A DNA stretch of 64,000 nt, taken from NCBI GenBank assembly GCA_965153355.1, contig OZ231126.1, forward strand, positions 8,184,001 to 8,248,000, given 5' to 3'. The notes under the pieces are model-generated. The model did not search any database and was not told where the DNA came from. It saw nothing but the letters and a program-made list of their open reading frames with translations. A program made the translations under genes and the position numbers. The DNA comes from Flaccisagitta enflata (lineage: Eukaryota). Below, one piece after another: positions 16,970 through 55,521 of the stretch; position 1 is the stretch's first letter, and each line of letters begins with the position of its first letter.

Positions 16970-17827
16970 TAAGATGACGACTCCTGTAGTGACTGCTAAA
17001 GAGAGCACAAATTTCTTCTAAAATGATCCTCGATAACTCTTAATAAGTTTAGCCGCAGACAACCGCTTGAAAATTTACTTTTTTTTGAAAAAGGAATGTT
17101 TTTTTTTCTTCTCTTCTCAGCCATTTTTTTTCTTTGTAAATTTAATGCCTTCCCTACGGAACATAAAATTGGAGGAACGTTTTTCCTCCAGATATGAGTT
17201 ACGTGGAATGGAAGGGGTTGACTTTTTACCTCTCGAATATTTTCCAAGTATTCTCGGTTTTCTTGGAAGCTTTTAAAAAGCCCCGTTTCTGTGTTCATCT
17301 TTCTCCCAAAAAGCTTTTAATAAATCAAAATATCTCCCATTTTCGCGCATCATGCGGCATATCTATATGGCTCAAATTTCAATCATTTTGATGCATTTTC
17401 CATTCCTCACTTACTACACATGGCGAAATTCTTCAGATCATTTTTATGCATGTTCCATTTCACTTTTACTACACATGGCGAAATTCCTCCGGTCATTTCA
17501 ACCTTTTTAATGCACTCCCCCATGCTCAATCCACTCTCATGACCAGTATCGCATGATCATTGTTATCCAAAGAAACTAAATGAAAATAGATGACATTATG
17601 AGGTATTCATAATGTTTGATGTAAAATAAAAAAAATTAATCACAAATGACAAAACGTGACGTTTGACTCCATTGGTTTGATTTTTGAAATCTCTTTAAAA
17701 CTGAAAATGTTGACTGTTGATTAAAATTGTATCTTAATTTGTCTCTCTCTTTTTTCTCCTTTTCCCTTTTCCCTTGCCCTTACCTTAACCCTTACCCTTG
17801 CCTCATGTCCTCCGCCTTTTCCCTTGC

Positions 17828-17894
17828 CCTTACCCTTACCCTAACCCTTACCCTAACCCTTACCCTAACTCTTACCCTAACCCTTACCCTTACC
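17828..17894. repeat. Telomere-like (CCCTAA/CCCTTA)n hexamer tract
   Basis: cccttaccctaacccttaccctaaccctta... Confidence 0.75.
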
Positions 17895-17929
17895 TCATGT
17901 CCTCCGCCGTCACTTTGACATCTCCGCCA

Positions 17930-17955
17930 TCTTGGATTCTCACTAACAGGTAAGG
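17930..17955 (+). other. Candidate recursive splice site (ratchet point) 1, junction 17949/17950
   Basis: cttggattctcactaacAG|GTAAGG. No AG on + between about 17603 and 17947; that stretch is largely C/T-rich. Confidence 0.45.
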
Positions 17956-18038
17956 AAATACACATTCGTGTGTGTGTGTGTGTGACAGAGAGAGAGAGAG
18001 AGAGAGAGAGAGAGAGAGAGAGAGAGAGAGAGAGAGAG

Positions 18039-18185
18039 AAAGACGAAAAGACGAAAAGACGAAAAGACGAAAAGACAAAAAAAAGACAAAAAGACAAAAA
18101 GACAAAAAGACGGAAAGACGAAAAGACGAAAAGACGAAAAGACGAAAAGACGAAAAGACGAAAAGACGAAAAGACGAAAAGACAG
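18039..18185. repeat. (AAAAGACG)n octamer
   Basis: Direct reading. Confidence 0.9.
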
Positions 18186-19274
18186 AAAGACTGACAGGCC
18201 AAAAAGAAAGAAAGAAAAAAAGAATCGGCAAACACGCAGTATCTCTAGCCTCTAGGCAGAGAGAAAATCAGAAGATAGGGAGAATTATCTGGAAGGAAAA
18301 ACGATAATTTAGTGGAATAATGAAAATTCGATGCAATTAACTGAGGAATAGATAACACGGAACGGGCAGAGACTTATATCTTAAAAACGCGACAACAGTT
18401 ATTGAGTTTATGGGAAAAGAAGGCAAAGGAGGAGGATGAGGAGAGGGAGGAAGAGCAGGAGGATGAGGGGATGAGCAGAAAAAAAGTGAGATAGGCGACT
18501 TATTCCACATACTCATACAGAATACCAAAATAACACTTAAGAGGGAATGATATCGACAAAAGAAAAGGGTTTTATATTCTAAGCTAAGATGTACAAACGT
18601 CCACTTGGTTGTGATTGAATGATTTCTGTTATTACGTTCAAACAAGCCAGAATGAAATCAATCAAATACACTGTGTGTATGTCTGTGTGTGTGTTTGTGT
18701 GTGTGTTTGTGTGTGTGTGTGTGTGTGTGTGTGTGTGTGTGTGTGTGTGTGTGTGTGTGTGTGTGTGTGTGTGTGTGTGTGTGTGTGTGTGTGTGTGTGT
18801 GTGTGTGTGTGTGTGTGTGTGTGTGTGTGTGTGTGTGTGTGTGTGTGTGTGTGTGTGTGTGTGTGTGTGTGTCTCTCTCTCTCTCTCTCTCTCTCTCTCT
18901 CTCTCTCTCTCTTTCTCTTTCCTTTTCGGTCTTCCCACTTCTTTAAGTGCCACGCAAAAACTCCTTTCTTGGCTTCCTTCCCCATCCCAACTTTTGTTTA
19001 TTTTTTCTTGTTCTTTTATATTTTAGTGCTCTTTTACTCTCTGTCTCTGTCTGTCTTGGACTATGTCTCTCTGTCTCTCTGTCTCTCTGTCTCTCTGTCT
19101 CTCTGTCTCTCTGTCTCTCTCTCTCTCTCTCTCTCTCTCTCTCTCTCTCTCTCTCTCTCTCTCTCTCTCTCTCTCTCTTTCCCCTCTTTCGTCGCCGACT
19201 TCATCTTTTTCCTTCTCATAGTCTTTGCCTTATATGAGCCTCGTTACTGAGAGGTTGTTGCCTTGACCCGACTA

Positions 19275-54122: not shown

Positions 54123-54487
54123 GTCTATATCTATGAAGTTGTAACCAACTGTAATGGCTTTGTCATCATTGTCTACGGCGTAGTCCTCTATCATGGCGCT
54201 GTTGTCATCATGTGTGGCGTTGTTGTCATCATGAGTGGCGCTGTTGTCATTGTCGATGACGTTTTCCTCTGCAATAGCGCTGTTGTTATCATGTGATGCA
54301 TTGTTGTCATCATGCGTAGGGCTGTTGCCATCACGCCTGGCGCTGTTGTCAATATGCATGGCGTTGTTGTCATTGGCGTTCTTATCATCCTTGGCGTCCT
54401 TGTAGTCGATTCAGCGTTGAATCTGTCACGTAACGTCAATCTCCTTTTATGCAATTTTCCTGCGACAAAATTCATCGTTTTTGCCTT

Positions 54488-54740
54488 GTCACCCAAGTCA
54501 CCTCAGTCACCTCAGTCACCAAAGTCACCTCAGTCACCTTAGGTATCTCAGTCATCTCAATCACCAAAGTCATCTCAGTCACCTAAGTCACCAAAGTCAC
54601 CTCAGTCACCTTAGTTATCTCAGTCATCTCAATCATCTCAGTCACCAAAGTCACCTCAGCCATCTCAGTCACCAAAGTCACCTCAGTCACCTCAGTCATC
54701 TCAGTCACCAAAGTCTGTCACGTGACAGTCACCTCAGTCA
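54488..54740. repeat. 9-bp (AGTCACCTC)n
   Basis: Direct reading. Confidence 0.9.
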
Positions 54741-54875
54741 ATACACATTCTACACACATCCATGCATACTCAATCACATCCTCAAGCAATCTAAGGCTTT
54801 CACATTCATCGGCTTGCACACTGGAATGACTCGATCACATTCACACGCTATCACACGCTATCACACGCACCATCA

Positions 54876-54982
54876 TGCATGCGCACGTGATCACGTGCTT
54901 ACGATTTCTAGCCGCCATCTTTGAGTTTGTCGCTCTTTTTTCCCATCGGGAATTTTAAGACTCGTTGCGCCGCCTGGCGCCA
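54876..54982. promoter_or_regulatory. CpG-rich motif cluster (tandem E-box palindrome, YY1-like, NRF1-like)
   Basis: tgcatgcgca; gcacgtgatcacgtgc (54883-54898); gccgccatcttt (54911-54922); gcgccgcctggcg. Confidence 0.35.
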
Positions 54983-55439
54983 AATCTTGATAGTCATGAC
55001 AAAAGAACTGTTCAATGAAAAGAAATCGTATTGATCAAAAGAACATGCATATAAGGATGAGATTGGATGGGCTTTCTCTGTCTCTGTCTGTCTCTGTCTC
55101 TGTCTATCCCTCTCTCTTTGTCAGTCTCTCTCTCTCTCTCTCTCTCTCTCTCTCTCTCTCTCTCTCTCTCTCTCTCTCTCTCTCTCTCTCTCTCTCTCTC
55201 TCACACACACACACACACACACACACACACACACACACACACACACACACACACACACACACACAATGACACACAGAAAAATGCAGACCAAGAATAGGAT
55301 GGAGTAAAAGGACAGTGGAGATGAATCATGTTTACTGTTGAGATGAAAGCTTGAATGAGGTTGGTGAAAAAAACATTCATGAAATGTAGCGTATGTATTA
55401 TATTGTATTGTATTGTATCAATGACTTTGCAATAATTCA

Positions 55440-55521
55440 TTTTCCTTATTTTTTTCCTGCCCATTTCCCTCTCATCATTTCCCCTTCAACATGATTGGAT
55501 GATCCTTTTCTCCAGGTAAGA
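55440..55521 (+). other. Candidate recursive splice site 3, junction 55515/55516
   Basis: Long pyrimidine tract, then gatgatccttttctccAG|GTAAGA; previous AG is at 55388-89. Confidence 0.55.

Follow-up and report, generated by a model that had tools for sequence, protein, structure and literature searches.

By searching both strands of a 64,000-nt stretch of the Flaccisagitta enflata genome (GenBank assembly GCA_965153355.1, contig OZ231126.1, positions 8,184,001 to 8,248,000; hereafter the window, whose own numbering is used throughout), we found exactly three matches to the motif CAGGTAAG, all of them on the plus strand and each closing a long pyrimidine-rich zone devoid of AG. An acceptor fused in this way to a consensus donor recalls the zero-nucleotide ratchet points of recursive splicing in Drosophila (Hatton 1998 and Burnette 2005, as cited in PMC2773006). 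At least the second and third sites in the order of the sequence (sites 2 and 3) may be genuine ratchet-point-type signals that combine an acceptor with a donor, a reading to which we assign a probability of roughly 0.4, and site 1 is possibly a genuine composite signal as well. Unlike the bare count of the 8-mer, the junction of a long AG-free zone with GTAAG is unusual: such zones of at least 78 nt are followed by GTAAG three times, as compared to an expectation of 0.116 (Poisson P = 2.4e-4).

Anatomy and spacing of the three sites

The sequence-only reading from which this work started had placed three CAG|GTAAG junctions on the plus strand, about 15.8 and 21.8 kb apart, each behind a pyrimidine-rich zone lacking AG for about 345, 78 and 124 nt. 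All of this was reproduced by the exact-match search (Table 1). The distances back to the previous AG are precisely 345, 78 and 124 nt for sites 1, 2 and 3, respectively, and the sites are separated by 15,783 nt (site 1 to site 2) and 21,783 nt (site 2 to site 3). The last 60 nt upstream are 72-80% pyrimidine, with fractions of 0.72, 0.80 and 0.77 in the same order.

All three sites display the core ratchet-point pattern, (Y)n N CAG|GTAAGT, with its invariant AG|GT and a consensus donor. The donors agree with the consensus at 6/7, 7/7 and 6/7 positions, while pyrimidines occupy 9, 10 and 10 of the 14 positions from -5 to -18. Site 2 is followed after 34 nt by the start of an (ATG)n array, and site 3 is flanked by CT/CA repeats, which lie about 250 nt away on the upstream side and about 150 nt away on the downstream side. 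The weakest acceptor of the three is that of site 1. Its AG-free zone includes an interstitial array of degenerate telomere-like repeats, (CCCTTA/CCCTAA)n, with 20 copies at 74% match (17771-17894), which in turn sits within a 92-nt internal duplication (17765-17816 versus 17857-17908, 86.5% identity). The sequence directly upstream of the junction (17895-17949) holds ctcATGtcctccgccgtcactttgacatctccgccatcttgg, including ccgccatcttgg. The same region (17600-17949) also holds six TTGAY pentamers, which are branch-point-like, where 0.73 would be expected. This is the top count among 350-nt windows, as established post hoc, and the cluster could equally be a degenerate repeat.

The arrangement resembles that of the fly in several respects, i.e. 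a pyrimidine tract is juxtaposed with CAG|GTAAG(T), the sites lie on the same strand, several occur in one region and no exon is seen between them. In Drosophila, 197 strongly conserved ratchet points in 130 introns are given by Duff et al. (bioRxiv 10.1101/006163), together with recursive segments of 2,596-63,580 bp (mean 17,953 +/- 9,039, median 16,368 bp). The spacings of 15.8 and 21.8 kb found here fit that segment length. The fly tracts are prominent, in contrast to the moderate ones of the window; furthermore, the present host is saturated with simple repeats, and its sites are predicted from sequence.

Table 1. Coordinates of the candidate sites, their upstream zones and other features discussed in the text (window numbering).
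Feature	Position	Strand	Description
AG-free zone upstream of site 1	17603..17947	+	345 nt; distal part A/T-rich with the TTGAY cluster; middle part a degenerate CCCTTA/CCCTAA array; last ~55 nt unique
Candidate site 1	17947..17954, junction 17949/17950	+	CAG|GTAAGG; 9/14 pyrimidines at -5 to -18; T,A at -6,-5
AG-free zone upstream of site 2	33653..33730	+	78 nt; contains the ~30-nt pyrimidine run ttcatttcctcccctttttttcttacccc
Candidate site 2	33730..33737, junction 33732/33733	+	tttCAG|GTAAGT; agrees fully with the fly ratchet-point consensus, TT at -6/-5 included
AG-free zone upstream of site 3	55390..55513	+	124 nt; ~50-nt pyrimidine-rich run, then ccttttctc adjoining the AG
Candidate site 3	55513..55520, junction 55515/55516	+	ctcCAG|GTAAGA; C,T at -6,-5
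Motif-level look-alike	8286..8300, at 8293	-	cctttttag|GTGAGTAA (donor GTGAGT); AG-free zone 18 nt; preceded by (GA)n/(GACA)n
Possible intron, alternative reading of site 3	55516..55633	+	118 nt; GTAAGAG, T-rich tract, ctctgcag; read from the sequence
Copies of the ~200-nt repeat family	16924-16969; 45868-45914 (-); 48078-48124; 9333-9408 (-); 39068-39128; 2323-2368	as marked

Chance expectation and strand asymmetry

The simplest competing explanation is that of coincidence. Long AG-free pyrimidine-rich stretches are common amid simple repeats of the TC, TG and AC types, and three of those on one strand might by accident have CAG at their end and GTAAG directly behind it, with no function attached. 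The bare count of CAGGTAAG is indeed ordinary, with 1.42 matches expected and 16 out of 100 dinucleotide shuffles reaching at least three, and three sites would share a strand by chance in one case out of four. Suitable zones are also plentiful: out of 9,873 AG dinucleotides on both strands, 212 close an AG-free zone of at least 78 nt. Against coincidence stands the joint event. GTAAG occurs only 70 times in the 128,000 positions of both strands, and even with a threshold of 40 nt, which yields 600 zones and an expectation of 0.328, three junctions remain improbable (P = 4.6e-3), so that the probability of the joint event within the window is about 2e-4 to 5e-3. As a control, 612 5-mers with at most 100 occurrences were compared, and GTAAG alone follows three or more such AG-free zones. 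In addition, the motif was predefined by the literature and not fitted to the data.

A similar picture emerged when all AGGT tetramers were considered. On the plus strand, 3 of 158 have an AG-free zone of at least 40 nt and a pyrimidine fraction of at least 0.65 in the last 20 nt, and these are exactly the three sites. The 4 of 190 that pass the same filter on the minus strand have poor donors (GTCGTG, GTTTTT, GTATTT and GTTAAG). Overall, the statistics of the sequence speak for genuine splice-type signals rather than chance, and we regard coincidence as a somewhat unlikely explanation for the three sites.

Several observations nevertheless weigh against ratchet points or on the side of coincidence. 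The thresholds of 78 and 40 nt were picked after the data had been seen, for which reason the real significance for this window is treated as lying somewhere within 1e-4 to 5e-3, and the finding was itself selected among very many windows. The acceptor tracts are only moderate, with 9-10 pyrimidines out of 14, and that of site 1 consists mostly of the telomere-like repeat array described above. Two features typical of the fly are, moreover, largely missing. The dinucleotide TT at -6/-5, reported for 196 of 197 fly ratchet points in bioRxiv 10.1101/006163, is present at site 2 alone (one site out of three), a rule known only from Drosophila, from which another phylum may depart. Likewise, fly recursive splicing is stated in PMC8605326 to need a cryptic recursive-splicing exon (RS-exon) of approximately 50 nt with a weaker donor of its own. 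By a crude consensus count, the best GT within +16 to +200 scores 4, 2 and 3 out of 7 for sites 1, 2 and 3, respectively, versus a median of 4 in random windows, and a cryptic donor is thus not apparent within that range. Neither did the window show any strand asymmetry of polyadenylation signals (AATAAA/ATTAAA) or of donor-like hexamers.

A last point of this kind concerns the minus strand. When the sites are defined by the motif only, i.e. -3 is a pyrimidine, no fewer than 9 of the 14 positions from -5 to -18 are pyrimidines and three or more of four donor positions agree, G at +5 among them, the three plus-strand sites are joined by an equally scoring one on the minus strand at 8293. This look-alike lies outside the span of 17600-55521 to which the sequence-only reading referred, and it is probably due to chance. 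The earlier remark that no equivalent site was noticed on the minus strand is consequently not quite accurate, as it stands if a long AG-free zone is included in the definition and not by the motif alone, the zone at 8293 being 18 nt long. Expressed as a ratio of sense to antisense, the window contains 3:0 sites in the former case and 3:1 in the latter, both of which are very small numbers. The looser pattern YAGGTRAG is found 18 times on the plus strand and twice on the minus strand. An array of 55 copies of (GTGAGCAG)n is located at 28044-28458, and we infer that it supplies most of the 18 plus-strand matches; motif counts that are blind to repeats would overstate the strand asymmetry.

The published densities of ratchet-point sites (RP-sites) in introns longer than 50 kb provide a yardstick (Shepard et al. 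2009, PMC2773006 Table 2). Per 100 kb, the values on the sense and complement strands are 2.196 and 0.101 in fruit fly, 1.029 and 0.000 in mosquito, 0.807 and 0.101 in beetle, 0.540 and 0.066 in sea urchin, and 0.484 and 0.122 in bee, while vertebrates have about 0.1 on either strand. The complement-strand background thereby amounts to 0.000-0.122 across 13 animals, as compared to 0.48-2.2 on the sense strand of long invertebrate introns. With three sites per 64 kb, equivalent to 4.7 per 100 kb, the window is far above this background and above every value in that table, including the fly sense strand. Our evidence resembles that of PMC2773006, and also that of a prediction in locust, in consisting of a motif and a strand bias without direct splicing intermediates. 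The difference is one of scale, as PMC2773006 covered annotated introns genome-wide with a complement-strand control, and the present data come from a single unannotated window of 64 kb. In the locust case, a recursive site was predicted in a 230-kb intron of NPF1 and supported by U2AF65 pull-down (PMC8892266).

The suggestion that recursive splicing may be undocumented in a genome of this kind is hence correct in a narrow sense only. Enrichment of the ratchet-point motif on the sense strand of long introns in non-drosophilid invertebrates was published already in 2009 (PMC2773006), and the locust site is likewise in print (PMC8892266). Novelty is accordingly modest, because enrichment in long invertebrate introns, sea urchin included, has been in the literature since that year.

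Exon borders and shared repeats as alternative origins

The sites could also be ordinary or cryptic exon borders, either as donors of short non-coding first exons (belonging to e.g. alternative promoters or a long non-coding RNA) or as acceptors of exons that begin with GTAAG, i.e. expressed RS-exons. All three donors are strong, and each site has a neighborhood that can be read in this way. An ATG-led stretch precedes site 1, and the ccgccatcttgg found there, which may resemble a core-promoter element of the YY1 type, might mark a short first exon that ends at the site 1 donor. The 78-nt AG-free zone of site 2 contains one open frame starting at an ATG and rich in F, P and L, residues that pyrimidine tracts in general encode. 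After site 3, a T-rich tract leads to ctctgcag at 55633 and thereby offers a possible short intron (Table 1).

These hints are countered by the structure of the sites themselves. An internal exon needs an acceptor AG, and there is none for 78-345 nt upstream; an exon starting at the junction would need a donor, and no donor-like site is apparent within 200 nt downstream. At sites 1 and 3, every frame through the AG-free zone is closed. By employing open reading frame (ORF), frame and Pfam checks, no recognisable coding exon was found in the window, and the Pfam search, applied to 30 of 37 selected ORFs (at least 75 aa and of non-trivial composition), yielded no real domain. We therefore consider exon borders a decidedly unlikely origin of the three sites, and return below to the ratchet-point reading.

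One candidate rejected during these checks was the lone Pfam match to pass the cut-off, a PT repeat of low complexity that results from translation of a (GGAC)n microsatellite and is not a domain. The two longest ORFs (42072-42674, minus strand) were discarded as a gene, as they are stop-free frames (201 and 180 codons) that overlap within a tandem repeat and have no Pfam domain; the repeat has a unit of approximately 50 nt with a recurring CMHATNPFLHARNNSL. Rfam (at gathering thresholds) and tRNA scans of the window gave 0 matches each. The idea that the sites represent spliced-leader RNA genes found no support in the 0 Rfam matches; the three sequences, moreover, differ from one another, as copies of a spliced leader would not.

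A third alternative is that the motif was carried to all three positions by an old dispersed repeat family, in which case shared ancestry rather than function would explain the likeness. In its favor, TTGGA stands 10-14 nt ahead of the CAG at all three sites and GAAAT follows GTAAG within 15 nt, and an alignment of 27 columns joins site 2 with site 3. Such resemblances are also met without common descent, as a shared 5-mer occurs among three 30-mers in 5.3-5.5% of random triples, and the pairwise local alignments fall within the shuffle range (the observed scores are reached in 29/300, 70/300 and 9/300 shuffles). Furthermore, no additional copies of the site flanks are present in the window, and the junctions of sites 2 and 3, searched as exact words, had 0 matches each in metagenome contigs.

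Contigs from marine metatranscriptome runs point in the same direction. Four such runs came up with small shares (0.05-0.10), and they carry no conclusion on habitat or expression. Over positions 16001-18700, only repeats were covered by contigs of three runs (16165-16392, 16541-16990, 17801-17890 and 18071-18160). Real repeats of the genome are covered at depths of thousands, as opposed to 0-0.84 in the bin that holds site 1. Together these comparisons argue against the three sites being copies of a single repeat, and common descent from a repeat family is a very improbable explanation. In a polyA-selected run from the same species and the same study as the DNA, of which about 6/100 was read, 0 of 12,162,974 reads fell on 16001-18700, a result that is uninformative for or against transcription.

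Proposed recursive removal of a long intron and the repeat background

If the sites are ratchet points, they would sit on the sense (plus) strand of a long intron. The upstream exon would first be joined to the AG of a site, with the pyrimidine tract and AG-free zone acting as an ordinary 3' splice site. This joining would recreate exon-CAG|GTAAG, a strong 5' splice site, and the regenerated donor would then serve the next segment. In this manner, at least 38 kb would be removed in pieces of approximately 16 and 22 kb. The anatomy of the sites and their improbability under chance are observed, and it is from these that transcription, its strand, the joining and a host gene are inferred. The giant intron is putative, and what speaks for it directly is limited to the absence of recognisable exons.

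Vertebrates, according to the summaries of Sibley 2015 and Blazquez 2018 given in PMC8605326 and PMC6224609, use RS-exons for recursive splicing. The sites of the window share with these an AG|GURAG junction that restores a donor after the first splice. They differ in that a definable RS-exon and a downstream donor are needed in vertebrates, whereas none of the three sites shows such an exon with its donor to a distance of 200 nt. For a giant vertebrate genome, that of a lungfish, recursive splicing is argued in a preprint (10.1101/2024.12.11.627982) not to be required.

The weighing of the reading assumes that about one third of the genome is long intron, that long introns of invertebrates hold 0.5-2.2 sites per 100 kb, and that chance sites arise at the rate estimated from the window. 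Under these assumptions, a same-strand triplet would be real more often than accidental. Our confidence was lowered from there by the lack of fly features, the weakness of site 1, the minus-strand look-alike, the post-hoc thresholds and the question of the host taxon.

A bolder version would have a giant intron (longer than 38 kb and perhaps longer than 64 kb) removed stepwise at zero-nucleotide ratchet points, with a density of approximately 4.7 per 100 kb that exceeds that of long Drosophila introns and with the same segments of about 16-22 kb, while following neither the TT rule at -6/-5 nor the use of a recognisable cryptic RS-exon. We hold this version to be unlikely. Were it true, conservation of an optimal segment length across phyla would be suggested, as would a mode of recognition independent of exon definition. 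If the sites are real, the window would offer concrete, testable ratchet points from beyond the insects and vertebrates, in a genome with introns swollen by simple repeats, and would bear both on whether recursive splicing is a general answer to long introns and on the universality of the fly rules, i.e. TT at -6/-5 and the cryptic RS-exon. At present the finding constitutes a lead that gives three coordinates, short of a result.

As regards the surroundings of the sites, repeats, both simple and tandem, pervade the window and amount to 255 Tandem Repeats Finder rows. A 101-nt tandem repeat is located at 12513-13599 (10.8 copies, 94% match), and a simple repeat at 18708-18872. A satellite with a period of 89 nt occupies about 51800-54300, where both strands carry ORFs repeated at that interval (e.g. 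52069, 52158 and 52247). Lastly, a dispersed repeat family of approximately 200 nt occurs in both orientations (Table 1); its members enclose a (GGAC/GGAT)n microsatellite and share a conserved core of 46 nt. In the bin at 16901-16990, this core reaches summed depths of 6,650-30,400 from contigs of three marine metatranscriptome runs, and the family looks like an abundantly transcribed element similar to short interspersed nuclear elements (SINE-like) of this or related organisms.

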